Origin: Pseudomonadota bacterium
GTDB taxonomy: Bacteria > Myxococcota_A > UBA9160 > JADFDR01
Direction: 5' to 3'
Length of the DNA: 64,000 bases
NCBI GenBank assembly: GCA_003353845.1
Contig: PIVT01000001.1
Coordinates: forward strand, 45,760-109,759
In this document: positions 16,426 to 48,331 of the stretch, piece by piece
How positions within the stretch are numbered: the stretch's first letter is position 1
Layout of the letters: each line of letters starts with the position of its first letter
Translations under genes and position numbers: made by a program
Notes under the pieces: model-generated
The model's input: only the letters and a program-made list of their open reading frames with translations
Told to the model about the DNA's origin: nothing
Database searches by the model: none

Positions 16426-17392
16426 CTCTCAAGGTGAAGGCAAGGAAGGCTTCCAGTCGCCTGGCCGCTTCGAGTTTTTCCGGCGTGCCGTCCATCCGGG
16501 CAATATTTTCGTAGATCTTGGTGGCGCCATCGACGAGTTCCTGAAAGCTAATCGGATCGAAGTACAAGCCTGCAGGCGGATTGACCGCAGCATATTCCTT
16601 GGCCATGTCTGCGTAGAGATTGGCAAGGTTTAGAATATGTCGATTGGCGTACTTGCTTTCGCGGTGCCGTGAAATCAAGCGTTGGTATTCAGCCACAGCC
16701 CGCAGGTCGCCGTCTAGAAAGAGTTGGCGTGTTGCGACGAAGTAACGCAGGCGCTCCTCATCGGCGCGCTCAATTTCTTCTTCCAACATGGCTGCGTAAT
16801 GAGTGCCGACAACTTCTTCTCGCAGTGCGTGAAAATCGGCCAATTTGAGTTTGTGAGCGGCCAGAATAAATTCGGAGGAGGGGAGAAGGGGGGCGTCGTT
16901 CGGTTTGTCGAGGTGAGACGTAGTGGGTTCGAACAGCGTTTGCTCGACGGTGCGTTGGAACTTCTCACAGATCGTCGCGCTGCGCACAGCGTCGTCCATA
17001 AGTTCCCCTTGGCGTTGTGCAGCCGCCCGATAATTATCGGCGGCCAACGCATAGGCGCCAAGCCGCTCAAAGGAGCGACCTTTGGCGAAGAACAAGACTT
17101 CATCAAAGTGCCCCGCACGCAAAGCCTCGGCATGCGCGACTTCAATGTTTTCAAGTCGAAGCAAGGAGGCGCGGTAGACGTTGCGACCGGTGAAGTCACG
17201 CGCCGGAAAAAAACGGTAGGTATCATCGGAGACATGCCGCTGCAGGACGGCTACGACTTCGAGAATGCTTTCCGGGGGTCGGTAGCGTTCGTCGCTGACG
17301 GGAGTGTGTGAGCAGCCCACCAGGCCTGCGACGAAAACCAGTACGGCGATCGCCGAGAACTCAGGAAGAACCCTTGTCTTTTTTGCTTGCAC
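16400..17392 (-). CDS. hypothetical lipoprotein (helical/TPR-like)
   Basis: The ORF track gives 16400..17482, which overlaps cimA by 122 nt. An in-frame GTG at 17392 gives a start just before the signal peptide AIAVLVFVAGLVGC (lipobox LVGC). The start is uncertain. The 3' end overlaps the next gene by 26 nt. Confidence 0.5.
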   Translation of the reverse strand: MQAKKTRVLPEFSAIAVLVFVAGLVGCSHTPVSDERYRPPESILEVVAVLQRHVSDDTYRFFPARDFTGRNVYRASLLRLENIEVAHAEALRAGHFDEVLFFAKGRSFERLGAYALAADNYRAAAQRQGELMDDAVRSATICEKFQRTVEQTLFEPTTSHLDKPNDAPLLPSSEFILAAHKLKLADFHALREEVVGTHYAAMLEEEIERADEERLRYFVATRQLFLDGDLRAVAEYQRLISRHRESKYANRHILNLANLYADMAKEYAAVNPPAGLYFDPISFQELVDGATKIYENIARMDGTPEKLEAARRLEAFLAFTLRVDVDRFTN

Positions 17393-18980
17393 GGGGCTTC
17401 GGTCCCTGTTTGTTGGTTTTTCGACTTCGCTTTGATTTTGGAGAGGCTGGCACGATGGCGTTGAGCATCTTCTCAGTGGCAATCACAGCAGCTGCCATTT
17501 GGTCGGAGTCCACACCCGTAGTGGTGATGACATCGTCCTCTTCGTCGGGGTTTTCCCAGCGGATGAGCGTTTCAACAAGGGCGGTCGTTCGCCCGCCCGG
17601 CGCGATGCGCACACGGAAATCCAACAGGCGTGGCAATTCCAAGCCGTAGGCTTCTTGCATCGCTTTGCGCAGCGCATTCATGAAGGCGTCGTACCCACCA
17701 TCTCCATTCCCTTCGGCCTTGGCGGTTTTTCCACGAAAGGCCACGGTGACTTGCGCACGTGGGAGTTCATCGGATCCGACATTGACCTCGTAATGCTCGA
17801 CTCGAATGCGACTCTCTTCGGGCATCTTTAACAAGTCTGAGATGATGAGAGGTAAGTCTTGGGGACCGACGGTGTGCTTCTTGTCTCCCAACTCGATGAT
17901 GCGTTGCAGCAAAAGTTTTTTCTCGGCGGGAGTCAGTTCGATGCCCAGGCGCTTGAGGTTGTGGTCGACAGAGGCCTTGCCCGAGAGTTTGCCCAGCGCG
18001 TAGCGCCGTTTGCGTCGGAAGCGATCGGGCAATAAGCGACTGGCATACAGGTTGCCCTTCATGTCCCCGTCGGCATGAACTCCCGCGGTTTGCGTAAACA
18101 CGTCGCTGCCGACGATGGGTGCGTTGGCCGGGATTTCTTTACCGGTAAAGACCTGGACGAGTTCCGACACTTCCACCAAGTATTTTTCATTGACCCGCGT
18201 GTGGTAATCGGTGAGGTCCTTGATGGCGGGAACGATCTGGGCCAGGCGTGTGTTGCCCGCCCGCTCTCCGAGCCCGTTGACGCTGGTGTGCACGCCGCGC
18301 ACGCCAGCACGCACTGCGGCTAAACAGTTCGCCGTCGACAGGCCGTAATCATTGTGAGAGTGAAATTCGAAATGCACATCGGGCCAGGCGGTCACCATGA
18401 GCCCGATGTAGCGCTCGGTCTCATGAGGGCTAAGCACGCCAAGCGTGTCGGGTAGTAGAACGCGCTCGATGGGGAGTGTGCACAGCGTTTGCATCATGGA
18501 CGCGACGTAGTCAAAGTTTTCTCGCACACCATTGGACCAGTCTTCCAAGTAGACGTTGACTTTAATGCGGCGTCTGCGCGCATAGCGAATGGTCGCTTCG
18601 ACTTTCTGGCGATGCGCCTCGGGCTTCATGCGCAGCTGCCCCACGCAGTGGCTTTCCGAACCCTTGGTCAACAGATTGATCACCTTGCCGCCCACGCCCA
18701 CCAGCCAGTCGATGGATTTCCCACCATCGCAGAAGCCCAGCATCTCAATGCGCTCAAGACAGTCATTCTTCTTGGCCCAACTCGTGATTTGCCTGGCGGC
18801 GTCCCGTTCCCCCTCGGAGACGCGGGTCGATGCGATTTCAATGCGATCGACGTTGACCTCAGTGAGCAGGATACGCGCGAGTTGGAGTTTTTCGGACGGG
18901 GTGTAGGAGATATTGGGGGTTTGTTCCCCATCGCGTAGCGTGGTGTCCATAACGGAGATGATTTTGGCGTCGCCTGCCAT
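17361..18980 (-). CDS. cimA: citramalate synthase / 2-isopropylmalate synthase family enzyme (CimA-like)
   Basis: 539 aa. The N-terminus is DTTLRDGEQTPNISYTPSEKLQLARILLTEVNVDRIEIAS, followed by the HxH metal site FEFHSHNDYGL and a C-terminal LeuA-dimer-type regulatory domain. Confidence 0.7.
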   Translation of the reverse strand: MAGDAKIISVMDTTLRDGEQTPNISYTPSEKLQLARILLTEVNVDRIEIASTRVSEGERDAARQITSWAKKNDCLERIEMLGFCDGGKSIDWLVGVGGKVINLLTKGSESHCVGQLRMKPEAHRQKVEATIRYARRRRIKVNVYLEDWSNGVRENFDYVASMMQTLCTLPIERVLLPDTLGVLSPHETERYIGLMVTAWPDVHFEFHSHNDYGLSTANCLAAVRAGVRGVHTSVNGLGERAGNTRLAQIVPAIKDLTDYHTRVNEKYLVEVSELVQVFTGKEIPANAPIVGSDVFTQTAGVHADGDMKGNLYASRLLPDRFRRKRRYALGKLSGKASVDHNLKRLGIELTPAEKKLLLQRIIELGDKKHTVGPQDLPLIISDLLKMPEESRIRVEHYEVNVGSDELPRAQVTVAFRGKTAKAEGNGDGGYDAFMNALRKAMQEAYGLELPRLLDFRVRIAPGGRTTALVETLIRWENPDEEDDVITTTGVDSDQMAAAVIATEKMLNAIVPASPKSKRSRKTNKQGPKPRASKKDKGSS

Positions 18981-33508: not shown

Positions 33509-34127
33509 CATCGTCGATTTGTCTGATTTAGAGACACAGCCGGGCGCACAACACCCGCGTTTTGACAGCCGCGTCTTTACCCGGGAAGAGCGGGCTCGTT
33601 TGGATCAGTCCAGGGATTCGCACCGCTTGCGTTGGAGCTACTGGGCCGCCAAAGAAGCCACCTATAAATGGCTTCGCAAGCGGGACGAGGATGTTATTTT
33701 TTCCCCTCGGAGCATGTCGGTGTCCTTCGATAACGACAGCCTTGAAGGGGGAGAGGTACTTGTTGGTCCGGACCGCGTCGCCGTGAAGTTTTACCAACAT
33801 TCTGAATACGTACATGCCTTGGTGCATGACCCGGAGGCCGCTGTCTCCGCCCCTGCGATCGTCGTACACGTAGAGCGCATGGCTGATAGAGAGGTTGCGG
33901 CCGATTGTGCGAGCAGGCGCTTGCGCGAACTGGTGATTGCTCGGTTTTCGGCGGAACTCGAAATCGATCCGACGAATCTGTGCGTCGTGAGCGAGGGCAA
34001 GATCCCCAGGCTTGAAAGCAAGGGGGCGAGGCTAGAGGTGGATTTATCTTTTTCTCATCATGGACGTTATGCTGCCTTTGTAGCGCAACATGGAAACCAA
34101 CCAGCCGGTGAGCGAGGTGCTGCGTGA
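33495..34127 (+). CDS. 4'-phosphopantetheinyl transferase superfamily protein
   Basis: 210 aa from the ATG at 33495 (the ORF opens at 33462). GNDIVDL at the N-terminus and WAAKEATYKW match the PPTase G-x-D and W/F-x-x-KE-x-x-K motifs. Confidence 0.65.
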   Translation: MLGNDIVDLSDLETQPGAQHPRFDSRVFTREERARLDQSRDSHRLRWSYWAAKEATYKWLRKRDEDVIFSPRSMSVSFDNDSLEGGEVLVGPDRVAVKFYQHSEYVHALVHDPEAAVSAPAIVVHVERMADREVAADCASRRLRELVIARFSAELEIDPTNLCVVSEGKIPRLESKGARLEVDLSFSHHGRYAAFVAQHGNQPAGERGAA

Positions 34128-37100
34128 GTAAGATCAAGCCCATTCGTAGAGTTGCCATTGTGAACCGCGGTGAAGCGGCCATGCGCTGTATTCGAGCGGT
34201 GAAAGCCCTGGCGGCCTTAGAAGGAAGTGATCTTGTAGCCGTTGCGCTTTACACCGATGTCGATCGCGATGCCCCATTTGTGCGACATGCGGATGTTGTG
34301 CACCACTTGCCTCGTGAAGGCAGTGCGGTGTCCTCCTATTTGAATCACGATCTGTTGATCAGGGCTTTGCATGAAGTTAAAGCCGATGCCGTCTGGCCTG
34401 GCTGGGGCTTTGTCGCCGAAGATGCGGTGTTTGCGGACCGAGTGGAAGAAGAGGGCATGATCTTTTTAGGCCCCAGCGGCGACACCATGCGCAAGCTGGG
34501 CGACAAAATCGCATCAAAGAAATTGGCAGAGTCGGCCAAGGTTCCCGTGACCGCCTGGAGTGGCGCTGAAGTTGAGAGTGCTGAAGACGCCATCAAGCAC
34601 GGAGAGCAGATTGGCTATCCACTGGTGGTCAAAGCCTCGGCCGGTGGTGGTGGGCGCGGTATTCGCATGGTCGATACCCCTGAAGAGCTGCCAGCTGCCT
34701 TTGAGTCGGCGGCTTCCGAGGCCTTGAACGCCTTTGGGGACGGGCGCTTGTTCATGGAGGGCAAAGTAACGGGCGGTCGACACATTGAGGTGCAGATCGC
34801 GGCCGACAAGCACGGCCAGGTAGTGGCTGTCGGTTGCCGCGATTGTTCCGTGCAACGGCGTCATCAAAAAGTGCTGGAAGAAGCCCCGCCCATGGGGTTG
34901 TCGACCGATACGCTAGAAAACCTCAAAACCTCGTCAGTACGCCTTGCCGCTTCGGTGGGGTACTCCGGTGTGGGAACCGTCGAATTCCTGGTAAAGGAAC
35001 CCGAGATCTTCTTTCTGGAGATGAACCCGCGCTTGCAAGTGGAGCACGGTATCACGGAGGCCATTACGGGCGCTGATCTCGTGCAGGAACAAATCCGAAT
35101 CGGGCGCGGGGAGCGCCTTTTGAAAACGGAGTACACAGAGCAGGGTGTCGCCATTGAAGCCCGTGTGTGCGCCGAAGATCCCGATGCCGGATTTTTGCCC
35201 GCCCCCGGTCGGATCGCTTGTTTCGATCCCGCATTGGGGCCACGTATTCGCATCGACACCGGAGTGGTGGCGGGCAGTCGTGTCCCCGCCGATTTTGACT
35301 CTTTGATTGCCAAAGTGATCGCCACGGGTTCGACGCGTGAAGAAGCGCGAGCACTGTTGTCCTGTGCCCTGAACGATTTTGATTTGGTGATCGAAGGGGG
35401 TGCGACCAACAAGGGATATATTCTCGAGCTCTTGGAGTCAGAGGATTATCGCCGCGGGGGTGTCGATACTCTTTGGCTCGACCGTTGGAGTGCGGACCGC
35501 ACTGAGGTGCGCCCCTTCGCAGGGGAAGCCTTGGTGGTGGCTTCCTTGTTGGCTTATCGCCAAGTGCGAAACCTGGCCCTGATTAATTTTTATTCTGATA
35601 CCGCAGGGGCCACTCCGGCTTCGGCTCCCGCTTCCGTGGGCCAGGAAATGGATTTGAATTACTGCGGAGAGCAGTACCGACTCGATGTCTTTGCAATGGG
35701 CGCGCGTCGCTATCGTGTCCATCTCGACGGAACGGTTGTGAGCGCCACCCTGTACGAAGAAGGTCTGAACGCTGCGCGTTTGAAAATTCGAGATCAGATT
35801 TTACGAATTGTGTATGACGTGACGGATACCGACATTCGCGTTGAAGTCGAAAATTGCGCCCATCGATTCGGCCGACAAACAGCAGGGCGGGTCTGTGCTG
35901 GAACGCCGTCGTCTGTCGTAGCCGTTCATTCGAAACCGGGTGATGAAGTGCAAGCGGGCCAGTCCTTGGGCTTGCTTGAAGCCATGAAAATGGAAATTGG
36001 CTTTGACGCTCCCGTCAGCGGCATCGTCACTGAAGTGCACGTTCAAAAGGGCCAGCAAGTGGCGGCCGGCGATGTCTTGCTCGTCATCGAACCGGCTTCG
36101 GACGAAGATGCGGTTGGAGAGAAAGCCGAGCGCTTGTCCTTGCCTGTTGAACAAGATGCCTTGGCGGCCCTGTTTGCTTTAAACGAAGACGGTTCCTTGG
36201 GGCATCCGGATTTGTTGGCAGCCGACCGTGCTGATATCCAGGTGCGCCGTTCGGCCATTGCAGCCGTTCAGGAAGAAATCCGCAGAATTCTGTTGGGCTA
36301 CGACGCAAATCCCAAACGAGTGACAGCGTTGATTGCTTTTTTGGAGGCACCTTTCCCAGAGGCGCTTTCCGAAGAGTTCCGCAAAGAACTCAGTCAGATT
36401 GCTTCGGGGATCTCGCTGTTCTCGGATATCGAAGAACTCTTCATCCGCACGCCGCGTGCCTCGGTGTTGGGTAGTGCGGGTCCATCAAACAATGCACAGC
36501 TGCGCATCTTCTTGAGAAGGATGGGCGAGGAAGGTGAGGGGATGCCGGAAGAATTCCTCAGCTTGCTCAAACGCGCTTTGGCTCACTACCGAGTTGACGA
36601 CTTCTCGCGCATGGAACTGCTACAGCGATCCATGCTGCGCTTGTTTTCCTCTCAGCGAGAGCCGGATCTGCGGCATCGATTGGTGCACGGCATTGTCCGT
36701 TGCGTCATTCGCCTGGCCGAGTCGGGCATTGATATGGCCGGTAATCAAAACTTTGAGTACGCACTGACACGCATTGCTTCCATGCGCGGCCGTATTGACA
36801 ACGCATTGGCGGATCTGGCCATTGACGGTCGTTATAAGGTCTTTCAAGAGCCGGGCATCGAACGGAGTGCCGAGCATTCCACCGTGGCCTTGGAGCGTTG
36901 GCTCGCCCAAGCGGTGGATATCCCCACGACGCCACCCAGCGATATCGTAAATCATCTGGCTACAGCGCAGCGTGCCGTATTCAACCGGGTCGGCAGTTGG
37001 TTGGTGGAAAGCGATCCGCGCCATCGGCGCATTGCACTCGGCGTTGCACTGCGTCGTTATTATGCGCCGCGCGTGGCTACAGAAATTGAACCTCGCTTGC

Positions 37101-39730
37101 CCGACGACGAACTCATCGAATGTTTGGAGATCGAGGGCCTGGGAATTGTGATTGGTAGCTTGGCGTCGAAAAACACGCTGACCGAGGTCCTGGCGCGGGT
37201 GATCTCGGGTGCCAGAGCGCTCTCCGCACCGGCTGGCATCGCAGTGGAAGTATTGGTTCCCCTGGATGTGAACGAAGAGATCATGGCCATTCGGGAAGTG
37301 ATGAAATCCACACTGGCCGATTGCGATCTCGACGCACGGTTTACCTTGAGCTGTTTGTTGCCGAATGAAGATCAGCACTTTACGTGGGAGCGCGACGGGA
37401 CGGACTTGTGCGAGGTGGAGTTGTACGGCTTGCACCCGGAAACGGCATTGCGCGTCGACCTCAACCGCCATGCGAACTTTGAACTCGAGCGCCTGCCGGG
37501 CCCCGATGGGGTGTATTGTTTCTTTGGCTCTGCCAAGGAAGTGCCTGAAGATAGGCGCATGTTTGTCCTCGCCGACGTGCGAGGCTACACGCCCAGCGAA
37601 GGACCTCCCCAAGCGGCTCTATTGTTGGCGAGTTTTGAGAAAGCCTTTTTTGAGGCCACGCGTGCCTTGCGCACGAATATTGGCTTGTGCGATCCGCGAC
37701 GACAGATGAAGTGGAACCGCATTTCCCTTTTCGTTTCCCAAGACATCGTGCTCGATAACGAGATCGTTGATCGGTTGGCCAAGCGACTCACGCCCGCCAC
37801 GCGCAATCTCGGGCTGGAAAAAGTCATCGTGCGACTCGGGTCCTTGCTCGATGGCGGTGACCTCAGTGCGCCCCCGCGGCAGATGGAAGTTCAGTTTGCC
37901 GACCCGACGGGAAGTCAGTTGGAAGTATCCTGGAGGCCTTTACACACTGATCCCTTAGAGCCGGCGGCCGCTTATGAGCGCAAGGTCGTGGCGGCTCGCA
38001 GCCGAGGGCTGATTTATCCCTACGAGATTATTCGTATGCTGACCAGTGCGGTCTCGGGTCAAGACGAAGTGGCGATGGATCTTACGGAAGGCGATGAATC
38101 AGCCTTGCGTGGGGGAACCTTCGAAGAATACGAATTGGATGCAAAGGCAGATACGCCCACGGCGATTTCCGTCAGCGGTCGTCCCTATGGCGGGAATTCC
38201 AGCTCCATCGTTTTCGGAGTGATCTCTTCGCCCACGGAAACCATTCCAGAGGGAATGGTACGCGTCATCATTCTTTCGGATCCCACCAAGGGAATGGGAA
38301 GTCTGGCGGCTCCGGAATGTGACCGCATTTTGGCGGCCATTGATTTGGCCGAAAAGATGCAGGTTCCCGTGGAATGGGTTCCGCTCTCCAGTGGCGCGCG
38401 CATTGCCATGGACAGCGGCACCGAAAACCTGGATGCCACAGCCCGCATCGTGAAGCGCATTGTCACCTTTACCCAGACTGGCGGCCTCATTCACCTCGTG
38501 GTTCAAGGCGTCAACGTCGGTGCACAAAGTTACTGGGATGCACTGAGTACCATGTTGATGCACACCAAGGGTGTGCTGATCATGACGCCTGGCGCTTCCA
38601 TGGTGCTCACGGGTCGGGCGGCCTTGGCGGCTTCGGGTTCGGTGTCGGCTGAAGATGAAGCGGCCATCGGTGGCTATGAGCGGATCATGGGCCCCAATGG
38701 GCAAGCGCAGTATTACGCGGAAAATCTGGGTGATGCCTTCCGCATTTTGTACGACTACTACCGATTTAGTTACGTCGTTCCCGGTGAAGATCGTCCACGT
38801 GATCGCGTGAGCGAAGACGCCGTCGATCGCTCCGTTACGGATTACCCTTATGAAGTGGAAGGGCACGATTTTACCACGGTGGGCCAGGTCTTCGACGATG
38901 AAACCAACCCGGGTCGCAAGAAGCCCTTTGCCATGCGCCCGATCATGCGTGCTGTCATCGATTCCGACAGCAGCTTCTTGGAACGCTGGAATGCCCTGGT
39001 CGGTGGGGAGACCGCCATTGTTTGGGATGGATACATGGGTGGCCACCCTCTTTGTATGATTGGCATCGAGAGTCAAAACGTCGCGCGTTGGGGATATCGG
39101 CCCAGCGATGGGCCCTCGGAATGGAACGGTGGCACCTTGTTCCCATTATCGTCCAAGAAAGTGGCGCGAGCACTGAACTCCGCCAGCGGAAATCGTCCGG
39201 TGGTGATCTTGGCCAACCTGTCGGGCTTCGATGGCTCGCCAGAGTCCATGCGCAAGCTGCAACTGGAGTACGGCGCGGAGATCGCGCGGGCCACGGTGAA
39301 CTTCGAAGGTCCCTTGCTCTTCTTGGTGGTTTCTCGATATCACGGCGGTGCCTATGTCGTGTTCTCTCACGAACTCAATCCGAGCTTGCGGGCGACGGCC
39401 TTGGAAGGGTCGTATGCCTCAGTGATTGGCGGCGGTCCCGCGGCCTCGGTGGTCTTTCCGCGTGAAGTTCGGACCCGCACCTCAGCCGATCCACGGGTGC
39501 GCAAACTACAAGAACAGCTGCGCTTCACCTTGCACGCCGGGGAGCGGGCTGAAATTGAACGCGTGCGCCAAGAAGTTTTTCTCGAAAAGCAAGCCGAGGT
39601 TGCGGCGGAGTTTGACTCGATTCACACGGTGGAACGCGCGCTCCAAGAGGGCTCCATCGAGGCCATTATCTCGCCGGAGACGATTCGTCCCTTCCTGATT
39701 GATCAAATTGAAAAAGGCCTGAAGTCTTAA
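34124..39730 (+). CDS. single-chain multidomain acyl-CoA carboxylase (BC - BCCP - central region - carboxyltransferase)
   Basis: 1868 aa with a GTG start overlapping the upstream stop. Biotin carboxylase motifs are GYPLVVKASAGGGGRGIRMV and EMNPRLQVEHGITE. The biotinylation motif is LEAMKMEI (Lys622). Carboxyltransferase blocks are IILSDPTKGMGSLAAPE, SSGARIAMDSG and VILANLSGFDGSPESMRKLQLEYGAEI. Confidence 0.85.
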   Translation: MSKIKPIRRVAIVNRGEAAMRCIRAVKALAALEGSDLVAVALYTDVDRDAPFVRHADVVHHLPREGSAVSSYLNHDLLIRALHEVKADAVWPGWGFVAEDAVFADRVEEEGMIFLGPSGDTMRKLGDKIASKKLAESAKVPVTAWSGAEVESAEDAIKHGEQIGYPLVVKASAGGGGRGIRMVDTPEELPAAFESAASEALNAFGDGRLFMEGKVTGGRHIEVQIAADKHGQVVAVGCRDCSVQRRHQKVLEEAPPMGLSTDTLENLKTSSVRLAASVGYSGVGTVEFLVKEPEIFFLEMNPRLQVEHGITEAITGADLVQEQIRIGRGERLLKTEYTEQGVAIEARVCAEDPDAGFLPAPGRIACFDPALGPRIRIDTGVVAGSRVPADFDSLIAKVIATGSTREEARALLSCALNDFDLVIEGGATNKGYILELLESEDYRRGGVDTLWLDRWSADRTEVRPFAGEALVVASLLAYRQVRNLALINFYSDTAGATPASAPASVGQEMDLNYCGEQYRLDVFAMGARRYRVHLDGTVVSATLYEEGLNAARLKIRDQILRIVYDVTDTDIRVEVENCAHRFGRQTAGRVCAGTPSSVVAVHSKPGDEVQAGQSLGLLEAMKMEIGFDAPVSGIVTEVHVQKGQQVAAGDVLLVIEPASDEDAVGEKAERLSLPVEQDALAALFALNEDGSLGHPDLLAADRADIQVRRSAIAAVQEEIRRILLGYDANPKRVTALIAFLEAPFPEALSEEFRKELSQIASGISLFSDIEELFIRTPRASVLGSAGPSNNAQLRIFLRRMGEEGEGMPEEFLSLLKRALAHYRVDDFSRMELLQRSMLRLFSSQREPDLRHRLVHGIVRCVIRLAESGIDMAGNQNFEYALTRIASMRGRIDNALADLAIDGRYKVFQEPGIERSAEHSTVALERWLAQAVDIPTTPPSDIVNHLATAQRAVFNRVGSWLVESDPRHRRIALGVALRRYYAPRVATEIEPRLPDDELIECLEIEGLGIVIGSLASKNTLTEVLARVISGARALSAPAGIAVEVLVPLDVNEEIMAIREVMKSTLADCDLDARFTLSCLLPNEDQHFTWERDGTDLCEVELYGLHPETALRVDLNRHANFELERLPGPDGVYCFFGSAKEVPEDRRMFVLADVRGYTPSEGPPQAALLLASFEKAFFEATRALRTNIGLCDPRRQMKWNRISLFVSQDIVLDNEIVDRLAKRLTPATRNLGLEKVIVRLGSLLDGGDLSAPPRQMEVQFADPTGSQLEVSWRPLHTDPLEPAAAYERKVVAARSRGLIYPYEIIRMLTSAVSGQDEVAMDLTEGDESALRGGTFEEYELDAKADTPTAISVSGRPYGGNSSSIVFGVISSPTETIPEGMVRVIILSDPTKGMGSLAAPECDRILAAIDLAEKMQVPVEWVPLSSGARIAMDSGTENLDATARIVKRIVTFTQTGGLIHLVVQGVNVGAQSYWDALSTMLMHTKGVLIMTPGASMVLTGRAALAASGSVSAEDEAAIGGYERIMGPNGQAQYYAENLGDAFRILYDYYRFSYVVPGEDRPRDRVSEDAVDRSVTDYPYEVEGHDFTTVGQVFDDETNPGRKKPFAMRPIMRAVIDSDSSFLERWNALVGGETAIVWDGYMGGHPLCMIGIESQNVARWGYRPSDGPSEWNGGTLFPLSSKKVARALNSASGNRPVVILANLSGFDGSPESMRKLQLEYGAEIARATVNFEGPLLFLVVSRYHGGAYVVFSHELNPSLRATALEGSYASVIGGGPAASVVFPREVRTRTSADPRVRKLQEQLRFTLHAGERAEIERVRQEVFLEKQAEVAAEFDSIHTVERALQEGSIEAIISPETIRPFLIDQIEKGLKS

Positions 39731-41160: not shown

Positions 41161-42420
41161 GTGACAGCAGTCTCAGGGGCTAGCGCCCTATCCAACATCG
41201 ATATTGAAAAGTTCCTCCTCGACGCCCTGGCGGAGAAGGAGCTGGACCGAGGAGAACTGTGCCTGCTGGCCGAGCAACTGGGGGATCCGGCCCTGCGCAG
41301 TCGCCTGTTTGAGGTGGCTTCAGAACTCAAGCAGCGTAGCAAGGGCGATGTGGTGACGGTCTCGCGCAATGTCTTCATCCCCCTGACGAACCTGTGTCGC
41401 AATCGCTGTGGTTACTGCACTTTTGCCAAACAACCCGGTTCTCCCGAGGCCAAGACCTATGCGCTGGAGGAAGTGGCCAGCACGGTTCGCTCCGCCCAGC
41501 AGGCGGGTTGTCTCGAAGCCTTGTTTTGCCTGGGTGACAAACCCGAGCGCGCTTACAAGGAGCACCGTGCCTGGTTGGCCGAGCGCGGTTTCGCCTCCAC
41601 TGCGGAATACTTGATTGAAGCCTGCAAACTCACTTTCCGCGCGGGCATGTTCCCCCATTCCAATGCCGGGATTTTGACTCGCTCGGAGATGGAGGCGCTG
41701 CGACCTTGGAACGCCTCCATGGGCTTGATGTTGGAAACCTCCAGCACGCGTCTGCGGGGCAAGGGCATGCCGCATTATTATGCTCCCGACAAAGAACCCT
41801 CTGTGCGATTGCGCATGCATGAGGAAGCGGGGGAACTCAAGATTCCTTTCACGAGTGGACTCTTGCTGGGGATCGGCGAAACCAATGAAGAGCGAGTCGA
41901 TACACTTTTCGCGTTGCGCGACATCGAAGACCGCTACGGACATCTGCAAGAGGTGATTGTTCAGCCCTTCCACCCCAAGTTCGACACGCCCATGGCTGAC
42001 AGTGCCCCGTTGACCGAAGAGATCTTTGCCGCTTGGGTGGCGCTGGCTCGCTTGGTGTTGGGTTCCCACATGAATTTGCAAGCGCCGCCGAATTTGTCCC
42101 CCACGGTGTTGCCCATGCTATTGGCCGCGGGTGTGAATGATTGGGGCGGTGTGTCGCCCGTGAGCCTGGATTACATCAACCCCGAAGCGCCCTGGCCCGC
42201 CTTGCTGGAATTACACAGGCAGACCGAAGCTTCCGGCCAAAAACTTCGGGAGCGCTTGCCCGTCTACCCAGAGTGGATCACCCATCGACCCGAGTATTTC
42301 GAGCCGCAGATGCTAGAGGTGCTCAAAGCCCGGGCGGATGGCGAGGGATATGCTCGGGCCCACACAGTAGAATTGGACCCCCACCCGCAGCAGGGTCGAA
42401 AAAGAGAGGCCGCAGCATGA
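41161..42420 (+). CDS. cofG: FO synthase subunit CofG-like radical SAM enzyme (7,8-didemethyl-8-hydroxy-5-deazariboflavin synthase)
   Basis: 419 aa. SRNVFIPLTNLCRNRCGYCTF is the CofG-type CxxxCxxC context. It is paired with a CofH-like gene by an ATGA overlap. The GTG start is uncertain. The MqnC/MqnE families are the main alternative. Confidence 0.7.
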   Translation: MTAVSGASALSNIDIEKFLLDALAEKELDRGELCLLAEQLGDPALRSRLFEVASELKQRSKGDVVTVSRNVFIPLTNLCRNRCGYCTFAKQPGSPEAKTYALEEVASTVRSAQQAGCLEALFCLGDKPERAYKEHRAWLAERGFASTAEYLIEACKLTFRAGMFPHSNAGILTRSEMEALRPWNASMGLMLETSSTRLRGKGMPHYYAPDKEPSVRLRMHEEAGELKIPFTSGLLLGIGETNEERVDTLFALRDIEDRYGHLQEVIVQPFHPKFDTPMADSAPLTEEIFAAWVALARLVLGSHMNLQAPPNLSPTVLPMLLAAGVNDWGGVSPVSLDYINPEAPWPALLELHRQTEASGQKLRERLPVYPEWITHRPEYFEPQMLEVLKARADGEGYARAHTVELDPHPQQGRKREAAA

Positions 42421-43646
42421 TGATTGAGAAATTGCTCTCCCTGACGAATCCGCGTGTCGCCAATATTCTGGATGCCGCTCTTTCGGATCGAGAAATGACG
42501 CGTGATGAAGCGGCGATCTTACTGGAGGCCACGGGTGTCGAGTTGCACGCGCTCATGGCGGCCGCCGACGAAGCACGTCGCCAGGATTGCGGGGAGGACG
42601 TCAGTTACGTCGTCAATCGCAATATCAATTCCACCAATATTTGCTACGTGGGCTGCAGCTTTTGCGGGTTTGCACGAAATAAACACGACGAGGATGCCTA
42701 CGATCACCCCGTGGAAGCCATGGTCGAGAAGGCCAGGGGAGCCATTGAGCGCGGCGCAACCGAGGTTTGCATTCAGGCGGGTATCCACCCGAACAAAGAT
42801 CATCGGCATTATCACGAAATTCTAGAAGCCATCCACAGCACCTTTCCCGATCTACACATCCACGCCTTTTCACCGGAAGAGCTGGATTGGGGACATCAGA
42901 AAAGTGGCATGCCTCTGAAGGAGTATTTGCTCTGGTTGAAGGACGCAGGGCTGGGCACGATTCCCGGAACAGCGGCAGAAATCCTTGACGACACCCTGCG
43001 CAAGCGAATCTCCCCGCGCAAGTTAATGACCGAGCGTTGGCTGGAGATTGTGCGGGCGGCGCATGGCGTCGGGTTGCGTTCTTCCTCGACGGTGATGTAC
43101 GGGCACCTGGAAACGGTTCCGCAACTGGCGGCGCATTTGGAAACCTTGCGAAATCTGCAAAAGGAAACGGGTGGCTTTACTGAGTTTGTGCCCTTGGGAT
43201 TCATTCACGAAAAAAATCTCTTGTACAAAGAACTCGGTGCACGGGCCGGTTCCAGCATGCTGGAAGATCTGCGCATTATTTCCGTGGGCCGCCTGTTCTT
43301 CCGGCCGGGAATTATCAACGTGCAAACTTCTTGGGTGAAACTGGGGACCAAGCTGGCTCAAATGGCCTTACTGGCCGGAGCCAACGATTTTGGCGGCACG
43401 CTTATGGAAGAATCCATCAGTCGCGAATCGGGTTCACAGCACGGGGAATATCTTTCGGCGGAGGAAATCCGCATGTTGATTCGAGACTTGGGTCGCGTGC
43501 CTGTGGAACGCAACACGACGTATCAGGAATTGCGACGTTTCGATGAAGAGCCCCAGCTGACACCTCTGCAAGGGGGAGAGTCCGATGGAAAAACAGTCGA
43601 GAGGGCGGAGTCGGCTGCAAATCCCCTGCGAGTGCTCGCCAGTTAG
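42417..43646 (+). CDS. cofH: FO synthase subunit CofH-like radical SAM enzyme
   Basis: The start MMIEKLL at 42417 overlaps the cofG stop (ATGA); the ORF track opens at 42141. VSYVVNRNINSTNICYVGCSFCGF is the CofH/Mqn-type cluster motif. Confidence 0.7.
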   Translation: MMIEKLLSLTNPRVANILDAALSDREMTRDEAAILLEATGVELHALMAAADEARRQDCGEDVSYVVNRNINSTNICYVGCSFCGFARNKHDEDAYDHPVEAMVEKARGAIERGATEVCIQAGIHPNKDHRHYHEILEAIHSTFPDLHIHAFSPEELDWGHQKSGMPLKEYLLWLKDAGLGTIPGTAAEILDDTLRKRISPRKLMTERWLEIVRAAHGVGLRSSSTVMYGHLETVPQLAAHLETLRNLQKETGGFTEFVPLGFIHEKNLLYKELGARAGSSMLEDLRIISVGRLFFRPGIINVQTSWVKLGTKLAQMALLAGANDFGGTLMEESISRESGSQHGEYLSAEEIRMLIRDLGRVPVERNTTYQELRRFDEEPQLTPLQGGESDGKTVERAESAANPLRVLAS

Positions 43647-43678
43647 CTCGCCCGTCAACCCGGTTTCAAATCCTGGTT

Positions 43679-45136
43679 TTAAATTTCGTAACTTCGAGAT
43701 TGTAGTTCGCTGGAGCGCTGCACCTTGATCTGTTCGATGCGCGAGGAAATCGCTTCGACCTGATAGCGCAAGGGTGCTCGCTCAAGCATGCGTCGCTCAA
43801 TCACGCGAATCGCATTGCTCACTGAGGGATGTTCCTTATTGAGTGCACGCCCGATTTGCTTGAAGGATGCGTCGGTATAGCGATGGCAAAGGTACATGGC
43901 CAATTGGCGGGGGAGCAGAATCTCTCGCCGTCTGGAACGCGAGGCCAATGTGGCTGGCGCCGTCTTGAAGAACTTGGCCACAATATCGATGATGATTTCA
44001 GGATCGAGTGCCGCTTCGTGGACAGGCGGAGGGGCCACTTTCTTCAGCGCATTTTCAGTGAGTTCCAGGTCAATGGATCGACTGAGGAGTGCAGAACTGG
44101 AAACGAGTTGAATCAACACGCCTTCGAGATCGCGCACACTGCCGCGCAGGGAAGACACCAAGAGTTCAATACAAGCCGGTGGAATGTGCACCCCGCCCCG
44201 AGCCGCGCGGTCGCGCAAAATTTCACGCCGGACGTGGGCATCGGGAGGTTCAATCTCTGCGACGAGGCCCGCAGTCATATGCGAACACAGTCGCGGATCC
44301 AAACTTGTGATATCGCGAGGGAATCGGTCGCTGGTGAACATGACGCGCACGCCGGATTCACGCAGGTGCTCCACGGTATGAAAAAGTTCCATCTGTGTTG
44401 AACTCTTACCCGAGAGGAATTGCACATCTTCGATGACGAGGAGTTCGCAGTTGCGTCGGTAGACCCGCTTGAACTGATCCATTTGTCGGTTGCGGACCGC
44501 CGTGAGGAAATCACCGGTAAAGCCTTCGGCCGATGTGCAGACTACATTGTCGGCGCCGGACTGCAGTGCCTGGGCAGCGACAGATCGGGCGAGATGGGTC
44601 TTGCCCATGCCGGAAGCGGAGCTTAGGAAGAGCGGGCTGACACCGTGCTGCCCACCGACAGCCAAGGCGTAAGAGGCCTCTCGCGCGAGTGCGTTACAGC
44701 CACCCGTCACAAAGGAACTAAAGCTATAGGGAAGTTCGACTTGGGTAGAGCCTGTCGACTGCTTGCCGGTCCAGCGCTTGCCCGGTGTCTTCCAGCCGCC
44801 TTTAGACATGGGTGTGGTTTTCTTTTCCGGCGCTGGTTTCCGTGTCGCCGCCTGCGCGGGTGTGGCGGTCTGGACCAAGGCCAAGGCTGGCGGGTGCTCA
44901 TCCACCACAAGTTCTACATTGATGTCGTTAGCGGCCACCTCAGTGACACAAGAAGTAATCTCTTGCAGGAAGCGGTCGCGCACTCGCCCTTGGTGAAATG
45001 CGTTTGGACAGCACAGTTTCAGGCCTGAGGCTGACTCATCGACCCGCAAGGGTTGCAACCAAGCCTCAAAAGAAAAGGCTGTTGTCCGTTTTTCTAGCAG
45101 GCACAAGGCACCTGTCCAAAGCTCATTCGGCTTCAT
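43679..45136 (-). CDS. dnaA: DnaA-family replication initiator homologue (divergent)
   Basis: 485 aa. Domain I is LWTGALCLLEKRTTAFSFEAWLQPL. AAA+ motifs are Walker A SGMGKTHL, Walker B LLVIEDVQFL and sensor II SVRDLEGVL. The C-terminal HTH is PRQLAMYLCHRYTDASFKQIGRALNKEHPSVSNAIRVI. Confidence 0.85.
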   Translation of the reverse strand: MKPNELWTGALCLLEKRTTAFSFEAWLQPLRVDESASGLKLCCPNAFHQGRVRDRFLQEITSCVTEVAANDINVELVVDEHPPALALVQTATPAQAATRKPAPEKKTTPMSKGGWKTPGKRWTGKQSTGSTQVELPYSFSSFVTGGCNALAREASYALAVGGQHGVSPLFLSSASGMGKTHLARSVAAQALQSGADNVVCTSAEGFTGDFLTAVRNRQMDQFKRVYRRNCELLVIEDVQFLSGKSSTQMELFHTVEHLRESGVRVMFTSDRFPRDITSLDPRLCSHMTAGLVAEIEPPDAHVRREILRDRAARGGVHIPPACIELLVSSLRGSVRDLEGVLIQLVSSSALLSRSIDLELTENALKKVAPPPVHEAALDPEIIIDIVAKFFKTAPATLASRSRRREILLPRQLAMYLCHRYTDASFKQIGRALNKEHPSVSNAIRVIERRMLERAPLRYQVEAISSRIEQIKVQRSSELQSRSYEI

Positions 45137-45922
45137 AGTTCTCGCACAAGTTTTCGGGTTTTTTGCAGGGTATGTTGAGGTCTCAAGGTTTTTTGTCTTA
45201 AGCCCCCCTCACCAACGAGGAGGAGTAGAGCACAGGTAGCGGGCCCTCCGCAAACCGGATTTATCGCCTTGCCTACACTGATCTGCAGTGCCTTGTGGCC
45301 CTATTTAGACTTCATTATTGGGGGAAAAACCGTGTTCGCAAGTCGGATCTTTATGGGTTTTCACGGGGTTTTGTGACTGCTGTTGAGGTTTTCCTACGCT
45401 CTGCCTCACCCTTCGGGAGCCCGCTATACGCAGGGGGTAAGGTGCCTACTATTTAAAAATTACTCCGAAATACTACTAAATTCGAGGAAATTCAAACCAA
45501 ACGAACAATAGGTAGTACTTCCCGACGGGGCATGAATCCGAGGGGATCCAGCCATAGAGTCGCCGCATGGGCGCTTGTATTGAGCGTAGACGGTGCGCTC
45601 TTGCGAAAGGGGCGTCGGAAAGTGGGTCGAGCATGAACGCCCTGCAAATCGAAAAATAGCCCGAGGCAGGTAGACGCAATATTGTGTCTTTCTCCGTGAA
45701 AAAAAATTCAAATCATGGTGAGTAAAAGATGCAACGCGCCAAAATTTTTATGGCAGCCGCTCCTTTGGATCGAAAAGAGACGCGAAGATTTATAAAAAAT
45801 AACTGCGGCATTTTTACAACTCACTGTAAGGCCAAAGAAAAATCTAGAGTGTGAACGTGAGCCGGGATGTGCGCACTAAAAGTACGTCATGAGGTGCGTA
45901 TTCTTTTAGAAGAACAAAAAAG

Positions 45923-45950
45923 AAAAAAGCCTATAAAAATAGGCTTTTTT
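45923..45950. terminator. bidirectional intrinsic terminator
   Basis: Stem AGCCTAT (45928-45934) pairs with ATAGGCT (45939-45945) around an AAAA loop. It is flanked by an A-run on the left and a T-run on the right, so it is functional in either orientation. It lies 50 nt downstream of the 70-aa minus-strand ORF. Confidence 0.7.
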
Positions 45951-45994
45951 CGTTGGTTCTAGAATTGATAGAAAGAAGTCGCGAGTTACGATAG

Positions 45995-46207
45995 TTATGA
46001 CTGTTGTTGCTTCTTTAACTCATCATATTCTTCAAGAGTGTTTGGACCTTCGCTCACTGCAGCTTCGATGTTGTCGCAAGCAATGGCTTTGTCGAGTACT
46101 TCGCGCAAGAGGCCCGACACACTGAGCTCATCATATTCTTCGAAAGCATCTTCGAGGCTGCTCTCAGAAATATTAAACTCGAGGTTTACTTTGATCTTCA
46201 TGTCCAT
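45995..46207 (-). CDS. small acidic hypothetical protein (70 aa)
   Basis: ATG preceded by GGAG (10-nt spacer), with a terminator downstream. The protein has 18 Asp/Glu versus 6 Lys/Arg and EEYDEL occurs twice (aa 23-28 and 59-64). Its GC content looks lower than the flanking genes by eye. Confidence 0.55.
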   Translation of the reverse strand: MDMKIKVNLEFNISESSLEDAFEEYDELSVSGLLREVLDKAIACDNIEAAVSEGPNTLEEYDELKKQQQS

Positions 46208-46573
46208 CTGGTCTGATCTCCAGTGCCGACCATGCGGTTATTTCAGTTTCAAAAATCTGATGGCCCACAGCGCTGGCCAAACTATTCGTGATCTGCACAT
46301 TCTGTTCGCGCTCTATTGGAGAGCCGCTTTAAAATCCAGATGCCGTTACACCTGGAACTTCATCCTGCCCGGGTCACTTGGATCATACCTTGGCGTTTCA
46401 GACACGTCTCGCTCGGCGTGTGGCTGTAACCTATTGAAATGTATGATGCTTTCGCCCATCTTGCTCGGGAATAGTACCCAATGCCTTTTGAAAGGGCTAC
46501 GAAAATCCCCAAAATTATTCCAGTCGGGAATGAGAGCCTTGCCGCCTCGATCAGGAGGTCAGGAGCACTCGGG

Positions 46574-48331
46574 TCAGGCCGACTCGCCTTGAAGGTGCTG
46601 GGCTTGGTCATCGCTTGTGGTATCGCTGTGACAACCCGCCTTTCGACCCTTCGTGATCTCCATCACTTGCTGGGTCTTTTCTGCCAAGCGTTGGATGTCT
46701 TGTTGAGACAGCGCGCCGCGGTTCTCCAAAATCTTCAGCTGATCAGAAGAGAGGGCGTCGGAAACTTTTACTTTGTTCCAGGCGTAATCAGCATCCTTGC
46801 CGCTGGCAAACTCTTGGATCTCTTTGCTGATGCGCACCGAGCACCAATCGTGCCCACACATGGCGCAGAAGTCGGTGTCGACATCCAGGTCTTCGTCGTG
46901 GAAGGCGCGCGCTGTGTCGGGGTCAAAGCTCAGTTCAAAATGCTTTTCCCAGTTGAGAGCTGCACGCGCTTTGGTCAACTCGTCATCGCGTTCACGCGCG
47001 CCGGGAATCCCCAGGGCGACATCACCGGCGTGCGCCGCAATCTTGTAAGCAATACAACCCTGTTTGACATCTTCGCGTTTGGGAAGTCCCAAGTGTTCTT
47101 TGGGTGTGACGTAACACAACATGGCCGCACCGTGGTAAGCCGCAGCCGTGGCGCCAATGGCACTGGTAATATGGTCGTAACCTGGAAAGTAATCCGTTAC
47201 CAGTGGGCCGAGAACATAAAAGGGTGCACCGTGACAGAGCTGTCGTTGCAGTTTCATATTGTATTCGATTTGGTCGAAGGGCATGTGCCCCGGGCCCTCG
47301 ACCATGACCTGGCAGCCCTGTTGCCAAGCGCGTTCGGTCAACTCGCCCAAAGTGGCCAACTCAGCCAGTTGCGCTTGATCCGAGGCATCGGCCAATCCAC
47401 CGGGCCGCAGGCCGTCGCCAATGGAAAAGGTCACATCGTGCTCACGGGCAATGGCGCAAATATCATCCCATAGCTGGTACATAATGTTTTGCTGCTGGTG
47501 GTGGATCATCCATTTGGCCAAGAGCGCGCCGCCACGGCTTACGATGCCGATGAGTCGATCGCGCACAAAAGGCAAGTGCTCGGCCAGTAGCCCGGCGTGG
47601 ATCGTGAAATAATCCACACCTTGTCGCGCTTGTTTTTCGAGCTCGTCCAAAATAATTTTCTTATCGAGCTCTTCAATACTGCGATCAATAATCATGGAAT
47701 AAATGGGCACGGTGCCAATGGGCACTGTGGAGTTGGCGAGAATGGCGCCACGCGTGGCATCGAGATCGCCACCGGTACTCAAGTCCATGACCGTGTCAGC
47801 TCCCCAACGCACGGCCCAATGCAATTTTTCTATTTCCTCTTGCATGCTGCTGGACACAGGTGAGGCACCCATATTGGCATTGACCTTGGTCAAAGACGCC
47901 CGACCGATACACATGGGCTGAAGTTTTTGCTGTAAATGATTCCGATTGGCCGGGATCACCATGCGCCCCGCGGCCACTTCATCGCGCACTTGCTCAGGGG
48001 TCAAGTGGGTTTCGTGCTGGGAGACGGTCTCCATCTCCGGAGTGACCTGTCCCAGGCGCGCATGTTCAAGTTGAGTCACAGGTTTGAAATCAGCCGGTGC
48101 CTGCCAGCCAGTTTGCGTTTTCTTCCAATCGGCGGGCATGAAATCCCACGCCGTCTTGTCGGAAGGGGCGGGCATGTGGGGAGTGTCCGGCGAACTGAAG
48201 CTGAGCGGACCGCCGATTTGAGGTGGATTGGCAAAACTTCCCGGTGTCGTGCCCGAGTTGTCCTGGCCCGGGTTGGATCCCAAGGGGGGAAGTTCGATTT
48301 TCGCCTCGGTATTGGAGGAGTGTGTGCTCAA
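46574..48331 (-). CDS. thiC: phosphomethylpyrimidine synthase
   Basis: 585 aa. Motifs [35 protein letters not shown] and a C-terminal Fe-S motif [13 protein letters not shown] start at 48331 with GGAG 9 nt upstream. Confidence 0.93.

Follow-up and report, generated by a model that had tools for sequence, protein, structure and literature searches.

Can a DnaA protein initiate chromosome replication without its arginine finger? This residue (R285 in Escherichia coli) couples ATP binding to the origin-opening oligomer and is treated as an essential and defining feature of DnaA. The question is raised by a 64 kb stretch of contig PIVT01000001.1 (hereafter the window, always meaning the whole stretch), in which an open reading frame (ORF) on the reverse strand at positions 43679-45136 encodes a DnaA homologue of 485 amino acids (aa) with histidine at the finger position. 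On balance, we consider this gene to be the orthologous dnaA and most likely the chromosomal replication initiator of an uncultured lineage of Myxococcota, with a product that would assemble on the origin independently of an arginine finger.

A full-length DnaA protein with histidine at the arginine-finger position

By architecture, fold, and curated score, the 485-aa protein belongs to the DnaA family, and the first-pass annotation of this DNA had already described it as full length. Pfam models place DnaA_N (PF11638) at residues 4-65, Bac_DnaA (PF00308) at residues 137-293, and Bac_DnaA_C (PF08299) at residues 380-445, and the equivalog model TIGR00362 is passed marginally (351.2 bits; cut-off 343.9). 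Narrower DnaA models stay below their cut-offs (NF001154, 190 versus 410; NF009087, 173 versus 657), and the score for the IstB model lies far under its own. The best solved relatives are the DnaA proteins of Bacillus subtilis (8btg, E = 2e-63), Thermotoga maritima (2z4r), and Aquifex aeolicus. An AlphaFold model built from 31 relatives (predicted local distance difference test, pLDDT, of 84.8) superposes its domain III on 8bv3 and 2z4r with a root-mean-square deviation of 1.7-1.8 Å and TM-scores of 0.91-0.92, and Foldseek matches the model to 8btg, 8bv3, 2z4r, 1l8q, and 2hcb. The motifs for ATP binding and hydrolysis are kept (K179/T180, E236/D237, E204, sensor I D270, and sensor II R335); the first glycine of the canonical P-loop GxxGxGKT is serine here, as in most members of the clade described below.

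Box VII, encoded by the codons gat ccg cga ctg tgt tcg cat atg act gcg ggc ctc, departs from this conservation. In ungapped HMMER alignments, its RLCSH pairs with RLRSR in DnaA of B. subtilis (8btg) and with RLVSR in that of T. maritima (2z4r), and MAFFT pairs it with R281-L-K-S-R285 of E. coli, in a sequence that has K178, D235, R281, R285, R334, R399, and H434 where the literature numbers them. Since the three alignments agree, R282 corresponds to E. coli R281 and H286 to the arginine finger R285, so that the first arginine of box VII is retained and the finger is histidine. Both residues lie on one short helix (residues 281-287) of the model. The earlier proposal that His286 replaces the finger while R282 is kept is therefore upheld by the alignments and the codon coordinates, and none of the comparisons with other DnaA proteins puts an arginine at this position. 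Judged from its sequence, the protein fails one usually defining feature of DnaA, the arginine finger, and deviates in DNA-reading residues as well.

Variation of the finger position across an uncultured clade

The 120 best database matches (121 sequences with the window protein) are 46-94% identical to it and come from metagenomes or metagenome-assembled genomes (MAGs) labelled Myxococcota or Deltaproteobacteria. A search for cultured relatives led only to MAGs, which carry the name Myxococcota or "Deltaproteobacteria" or are evidently bins with a wrong label. When each GTDB species was represented by one genome, 80 loci were obtained, again all from MAGs, which together with three metagenome or MAG contigs form a set of 83 related loci. 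Glutamine prevails in the finger column throughout, with 87 Gln, 22 Arg, and 8 His among the 120 best matches; 49 Gln, 16 Arg, 10 His, 5 Lys, and one each of Leu, Thr, and Glu among the 83 loci; and 132 Gln, 37 Arg, 17 His, and 5 Lys among the 197 relatives from uncultured Myxococcota MAGs that remain after pooling and de-duplication. Leu, Ala, Thr, and Glu are also found among the relatives. The window protein has thus lost the trans-acting arginine finger, and within the clade this position has become free to change, with Gln more common than Arg, Arg than His, and His than Lys.

Other parts of the protein are close to invariant in the 121 sequences: K179 is found in 120, D237 in 121, E204 and D270 in 120 each, R335 in 121, and R282 in 118, and T/S180, W7, F47, R402, and H436 are likewise nearly constant. 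A P-loop of the form S/A-x-x-G-x-GKT, a Walker B motif with ED, and the domain IV signature R-D-H-P-A/S-V-S-N/H-A are common to the 120 best matches. The Walker B glutamate occurs in 118 of 121 sequences, and IEDV in place of IDDI, which had been pointed out for the window protein before, is thus a trait of the whole clade. When 1.84 billion representatives of 50%-identity clusters were searched exhaustively with HMMER, there was a break in score beyond the clade: the finger is arginine in 9 of the 31 best representatives versus 111 of the next 119, which are generic DnaA proteins at 28-38% identity, and proline occupies the position of E. coli T435 in 20 of these 31 versus none of the 119 more distant ones.

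On a neighbour-joining tree rooted on E. coli DnaA, with Fitch parsimony, the Arg-bearing sequences are basal and the finger position needs at least 14 changes; arginine is thus, by parsimony, the ancestral state in the clade. The replacement of T435 by proline predates the first loss of the arginine. The window protein falls into a small His-type subclade with the database matches P0001-P0005 and the proteins of loci L001 and L002, the sister group of which has arginine. His286 is kept in all seven closest relatives, sampled independently and 59-94% identical.

In full-text searches of the literature, no description of a natural DnaA lineage without arginine finger was found. Finger-less representatives exist outside the clade as well, e.g., P0148, P0188, P0228, P0253, and P0212 (with RLKAL, TLSSS, PLKSK, NLKSQ, and SLRSQ, respectively), so the phenomenon may not be unique, though it is rare there (8 of 119). 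Several Desulfobacterota-like DnaA relatives lack the first arginine of box VII (R281), and in two giant proteins, P0155 (1876 aa) and P0187 (1990 aa), long coiled-coil-like segments rich in Glu, Lys, and Arg are attached to an AAA+ domain of the DnaA type.

A divergent DNA-recognition domain

In domain IV, E435, H436, P437, S438, and N441 align with D433, H434, T435, T436, and H439 of E. coli. Of the base-contacting residues, the minor-groove arginine R402 (E. coli R399) and the central histidine H436 (H434) are kept, and D433 is replaced by Glu, T435 by Pro, H439 by Asn, and P423 by Lys. The alignment thus confirms the divergent C-terminal signature of the first-pass annotation (EHPSV at 43820-43834 where canonical DnaA has a DHTTV-type sequence) and shows that its changes of T435 to Pro and of H439 to Asn are clade-wide. 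Given the changes in base-contacting residues, we infer a recognition box other than TTATCCACA.

Within one mismatch, TTATCCACA has no match in the 858-bp non-coding region that precedes dnaA (45137-45994), where boxes had been reported missing before (over 860 bp), and the whole 64 kb hold 6 matches versus 6.8 expected by chance. De novo k-mer analysis of the upstream regions of 81 loci gave modest enrichments, with GAATC at about 3 copies per locus, GGAATC at 62 versus 17, and ATTTTCGA at 17 versus 2.6. We do not claim GAATC, GAAAWTC, or TTTCGAGA as the DnaA box, given that their enrichment across loci is modest and that GAAAWTC shows no enrichment in the window. A repeat search of positions 45100-46600 returned only short two-copy repeats at chance level and a terminator hairpin.

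Synteny and orthology of the dnaA locus

The gene is convergent with cofH, as the earlier annotation had it and as the TIGR03551 match of the neighbour supports, and dnaN, recF, and gyrB were not seen in scans of the window. Pfam scans covering about 40 ORFs of the window returned no dnaN, recF, gyrB, or parAB; tblastn with E. coli DnaN found nothing in the window or within 10 kb in the 83 loci, a result that is only supportive since the query was used without positive control. The same convergent dnaA and cofH-cofG arrangement is found at the His-type loci L001 (JGI 3300009506) and L002 (GCA_003353925.1). The Gln-type locus L003, on a 514-kb contig, shows the order small ORF, WLM-like gene (reverse strand), Lon-N-like gene, and dnaA, and dnaN is not present at this locus. 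Two basal members, P0147 (KLASR, RDHTSV) and P0276 (GLRSR, RDHTSV; GCA_046757685.1), share the upstream order of L003, and dnaA of P0147 is followed by cofH, cofG, and an aminotransferase gene. The WLM-like and Lon-N-like genes have been lost in the window and at L001, L002, L025, and L066, where 0.7-1 kb of non-coding DNA remains; tblastn detects no trace of either gene in the 858-bp region of the window, which we therefore do not regard as a decayed copy of them.

Since this locus order is common to Arg-, Gln-, and His-type genes, it points to vertical descent of one gene and not to a recent duplicate. Counting clade-type copies, each of the 80 GTDB genomes has exactly one. By synteny and sequence, the gene is the orthologous dnaA of its lineage.

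Upstream region and chromosomal setting

The promoter-like element upstream of dnaA (Table 1) is conserved clade-wide in place and sequence (TGGTCTACTCC / TGCTCTACTC), as seen in positional k-mers of 81 loci and in a three-way alignment, with the clade form TTGCGn-N17/18-TGnTCTACT. The proximal 350 nt contain further position-conserved blocks, among them a TGCAAACAC/GGTT block and TTGTGCGA immediately before the ATG. Each strong k-mer is present in a single copy per locus with a fixed location; these k-mers belong to the promoter-like TGGTCTACTCC, to a block with TGCAAACAGCGGTTCTCCG, and to the 3' end of the Lon-N-like coding sequence upstream. Positions 45700-46100 are AT-rich (37-41% GC in a window of 57% GC), and all loci inspected have an AT-rich module between -400 and -300; in the window, this part has neither a skew switch nor a repeat cluster and is not obviously an unwinding element. 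No known RNA family passes its gathering threshold in the intergenic region, and sub-threshold matches come only from the terminator. Altogether, we regard the upstream region as a promoter and regulatory region in which no origin was identified. Locus L002 differs in having a 24-nt unit, ACTCCCCCGCACGTCACCATCTCA, twice in tandem in non-coding DNA about 1000-900 nt upstream of dnaA, and this unit is not found in the window.

A short, strongly acidic ORF of 67-70 aa lies upstream of dnaA in 70 of the 72 clade loci with enough flanking sequence, including basal Arg-type ones, always on the same strand at a distance of 0.55-1.9 kb (e.g., L002, 2616-2819; L003, 8248-8454; L084, 8154-8363; L087, 8283-8492). 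Its consensus is M.I.IK...SLEDAL.EYDELTV.GLL.EVLDKAIA.D.I...V.EGPNSLEEYDE, and it matches no Pfam or NCBIfam family. Matches to designed pentatricopeptide-repeat proteins in the PDB (E down to 1e-5, about 20 residues) look spurious, as no stretch passes alone. The encoded protein may be a partner of DnaA that is specific to this lineage.

In 31 of 32 bins of 2 kb, the forward strand of the window has a positive GC skew irrespective of gene orientation, which changes from mostly forward to mostly reverse at about 43.65 kb, where cofH and dnaA converge. As the sign stays constant despite this change, the whole window lies in one replichore without a skew switch, at dnaA or elsewhere, and dnaA and about 18 kb of genes after it are on the C-rich strand given the positive forward-strand skew on both sides of position 43650. 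Across 36 related loci, no consistent skew flip was found at dnaA; most values are near zero, and in the few loci with measurable skew, its sign does not change across the gene. Skew at the window and related loci thus places no origin here.

Initiator, paralogue, or substitute finger

How would an initiator of this kind work? According to the reading that we favour with some reservation, the protein would bind ATP through its intact nucleotide pocket and would assemble on the origin through contacts of domain IV with DNA and of domain I, without an arginine finger that senses the ATP of a neighbouring subunit. Its domain IV would read a box different from TTATCCACA, and the origin would lie outside the window, unlinked to dnaA and dnaN. 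If all origin sites were read directly by domain IV, the lineage could dispense with the finger given some other control of timing; without ATP sensing by the finger, timing control by the ATP/ADP switch would be weakened or done by something else. Experimental precedent comes from E. coli DnaA(R285A), which fires oriC-allADP in vivo, a designed origin with its low-affinity sites turned into forms independent of DnaA-ATP (PMC6158602). A lineage-specific initiator reading a different box had been one of the alternatives of the first-pass annotation. Its initiator part is favoured by the clade-wide substitutions, synteny, the single clade-type copy in each of 80 genomes, and the conserved ATP motifs, and for the different box no candidate was identified. 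The more detailed scenario, in which this species-rich lineage uses the protein as its sole initiator with a dispensable finger (replaced at least 14 times by Gln, His, Lys, and others), a non-canonical box read by a Pro/Asn-type domain IV, and an unlinked origin, with timing possibly controlled through the acidic protein, is a tentative one and somewhat less likely than not.

Several observations weigh against this interpretation. E. coli DnaA(R285A) is inactive on the native oriC, and cells with oriC-allADP over-initiate (PMC6158602), so a natural finger-less initiator would need further changes. In cultured Myxococcus xanthus, a dnaA-dnaN-gyrB region is located at the origin (PMC12390754). 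The TIGR00362 score barely exceeds its cut-off, no DnaA box or origin candidate was identified in the upstream regions or the window, and the repeat leads GAATC, GAAAWTC, and TTTCGAGA are weak, with GAAAWTC occurring 33 times in the window versus 27.6 expected.

Some of these points would be accommodated if the protein were a second, diverged DnaA paralogue that acts as a regulator or transcription factor beside a canonical dnaA-dnaN pair elsewhere, its finger freed by a relaxed constraint on oligomerisation. An unconstrained finger with DNA- and ATP-binding residues kept is what one would expect of a DNA-binding ATPase, and the lack of dnaN, a skew switch, or a DnaA-box cluster nearby fits this idea as do the canonical gene order of cultured Myxococcus and the marginal family score. 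We nevertheless think it unlikely, although it deserves serious attention, since basal members at the same syntenic locus look canonical (Arg finger, DHTSV), so that the locus resembles an ordinary dnaA locus of the lineage in which the changes appeared afterwards. Furthermore, no close canonical sister group stands out among the 1.84 billion representative proteins (beyond the clade follow generic DnaA proteins at 30-38% identity), the match lists of crown-type and basal-type proteins have no contig of equal size in common, and conservation extends to W7 and F47 in domain I, whose E. coli counterparts bind the helicase.

It is also conceivable, if rather improbable, that the canonical ATP mechanism is intact and that His286 or Gln286, by a hydrogen bond to the gamma-phosphate, or else R282 or R284 contacts the ATP of the neighbour in place of the finger. 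R282 is present in 118 of 121 clade members, residue 284, the equivalent of E. coli K283, is arginine in 83 of 121, the replacements are mainly polar hydrogen-bond donors (Gln, His, Lys) and not hydrophobic, and R282 and H286 share the helix of residues 281-287 in the model. Yet the window protein has cysteine at position 284, which leaves only R282, and the finger position also accepts Leu, Ala, Thr, and Glu, and no alignment column shows strong covariation with the finger residue (mutual information of at most 0.26). In E. coli, R281 and R285 are moreover reported to have distinct and non-redundant roles (Felczak and Kaguni 2004; Kawakami et al. 2005). Finally, the histidine codon is a single transition away from an arginine codon (CAT versus CGT), as a sequencing or assembly error would produce, and gene decay might be imagined likewise. 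Such an origin of His286 can practically be dismissed: the ORF is intact and full length, its motifs are invariant over about 200 sequences, and the conservation of the histidine in seven relatives assembled independently effectively refutes both error and decay.

Features of the locus and other genes of the window

The coordinates of the dnaA locus are summarised in Table 1. The genes of the window are those of a housekeeping chromosome as judged by Pfam on about 40 ORFs: an EPSP-synthase-family gene, hisD, a hisA/F-family gene, dnaG, rpoD, a leuA-like gene, thiI, fab, an acyl-CoA carboxylase fusion, thiC, aroC, a MutY-like gene, and acs. Two ORFs on the reverse strand, 14134-16425 (763 aa) and 16400-17482 (360 aa), have no Pfam match at E <= 1e-6. 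A 1868-aa fusion of biotin carboxylase, biotinyl carrier, and carboxyltransferase is encoded at 34124-39730 on the forward strand and is conserved beside locus L001. The genes cofG and cofH (FO synthase, for the F420 deazaflavin) occur as separate genes in this Myxococcota chromosome and adjoin dnaA in relatives. At L001 and L002, cofH and cofG are followed by a sulfite/nitrite-reductase-like gene and folB, both absent from the window, and at positions 3734-5325 of L003, which lies on a long-read contig, thiC is broken up into ORFs of 265 and 174 aa, probably by an assembly frameshift, and preceded by a thiamine pyrophosphate (TPP) riboswitch.

Table 1. Positions of dnaA, its domains and motifs, and adjacent features in the window
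Feature	Position	Strand	Details
cofG	41161-42420	+	TIGR03550, 419.8 bits (cut-off 213); directly before cofH
cofH	42420-43646	+	TIGR03551, 462 bits (cut-off 374); convergent with dnaA
dnaA homologue	43679-45136	-	485 aa, ATG start, four domains; from ORF list, TIGR00362, Pfam, PDB match, and model
Domain IV, DNA-binding	43802-43999	-	Residues 380-445; PF08299, E = 1e-20
Domain IV signature IGRALNKEHPSVSNAIR	43805-43855	-	From translation and alignment
AAA+ domain III	44027-44728	-	Residues ~137-370; PF00308 at 137-293 plus lid region; fold match
Sensor II Arg335	44132-44134	-	E. coli R334; invariant in the clade
Box VII DPRLCSHMTAGL	44264-44299	-	R282 codon at 44291-44293; H286 codon CAT at 44279-44281
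Walker B	44423-44437	-	V-I-E236-D237-V; I-D235-D236-I in E. coli
Walker A core	44597-44611	-	G176-M-G-K179-T180
Domain II linker	44741-44884	-	Residues ~85-132; predicted disordered, pLDDT <50
Domain I	44942-45127	-	Residues 4-65; PF11638, E = 4e-7; W7/F47 correspond to E. coli W6/F46
Non-coding region upstream of dnaA	45137-45994		858 bp; without canonical DnaA box or known RNA
Promoter-like TTGCGG-N18-TCTACT	45224-45253	-	Preceded by TGTG; ~90 nt before start codon; by consensus resemblance only
Hairpin terminator	45922-45951		Perfect, bidirectional; 3' of the 70-aa ORF, before dnaA
Acidic 70-aa ORF	45995-46207	-	Family unassigned by Pfam/NCBIfam; same strand as and upstream of dnaA

Comparison with known systems

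If our favoured interpretation is true, the ATP-sensing contact of the finger would not be universally required in DnaA, and the box and origin of this lineage would escape predictors that rely on TTATCCACA or on dnaA-dnaN linkage. If a canonical second DnaA exists, the clade would represent a widespread and ancient DnaA-derived regulator, which would still be new though less fundamental. Compared to the canonical DnaA proteins of E. coli, B. subtilis, and A. aeolicus, the window protein has the same four domains, Walker A and B motifs, sensors, and equivalents of R281, R399, and H434. It differs in the finger (His here, mostly Gln in the clade), in the change of T435 to Pro and H439 to Asn, and in the loss of the first P-loop glycine, and its gene is unlinked to dnaN, canonical boxes, and a skew switch. 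DnaA of T. maritima (2z4r), which is about 32% identical to the window protein (Foldseek), also has proline at the T435 position (FNRSHPVV versus NKEHPSV) and a residue other than histidine at the H439 position, whereas it keeps the arginine finger (RLVSRF). It reads a 12-mer box and not TTATCCACA. The Hda/HdaA proteins have a related AAA+ domain (matched by Foldseek as 3bos and 5x06) but lack domains I, II, and IV and need an arginine finger of their own; the window protein is of full DnaA length and not an AAA+-only protein of about 230 aa, and its TIGR03420 score of 80.2 bits is far below the cut-off of 194.8.

Closest in concept is the engineered pair of E. coli DnaA(R285A) and oriC-allADP (Grimwade et al. 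2018, PMC6158602), of which the clade would be a natural counterpart, raising the question of how initiation is timed. In both cases, the protein has no finger and still binds ATP and DNA, as is shown for the mutant and predicted for the protein of the window. DnaA(R285A) is a laboratory mutant that works on a designed origin with deregulated timing, whereas the loss of the finger described here is natural and ancient and extends over more than 150 species-level genomes.

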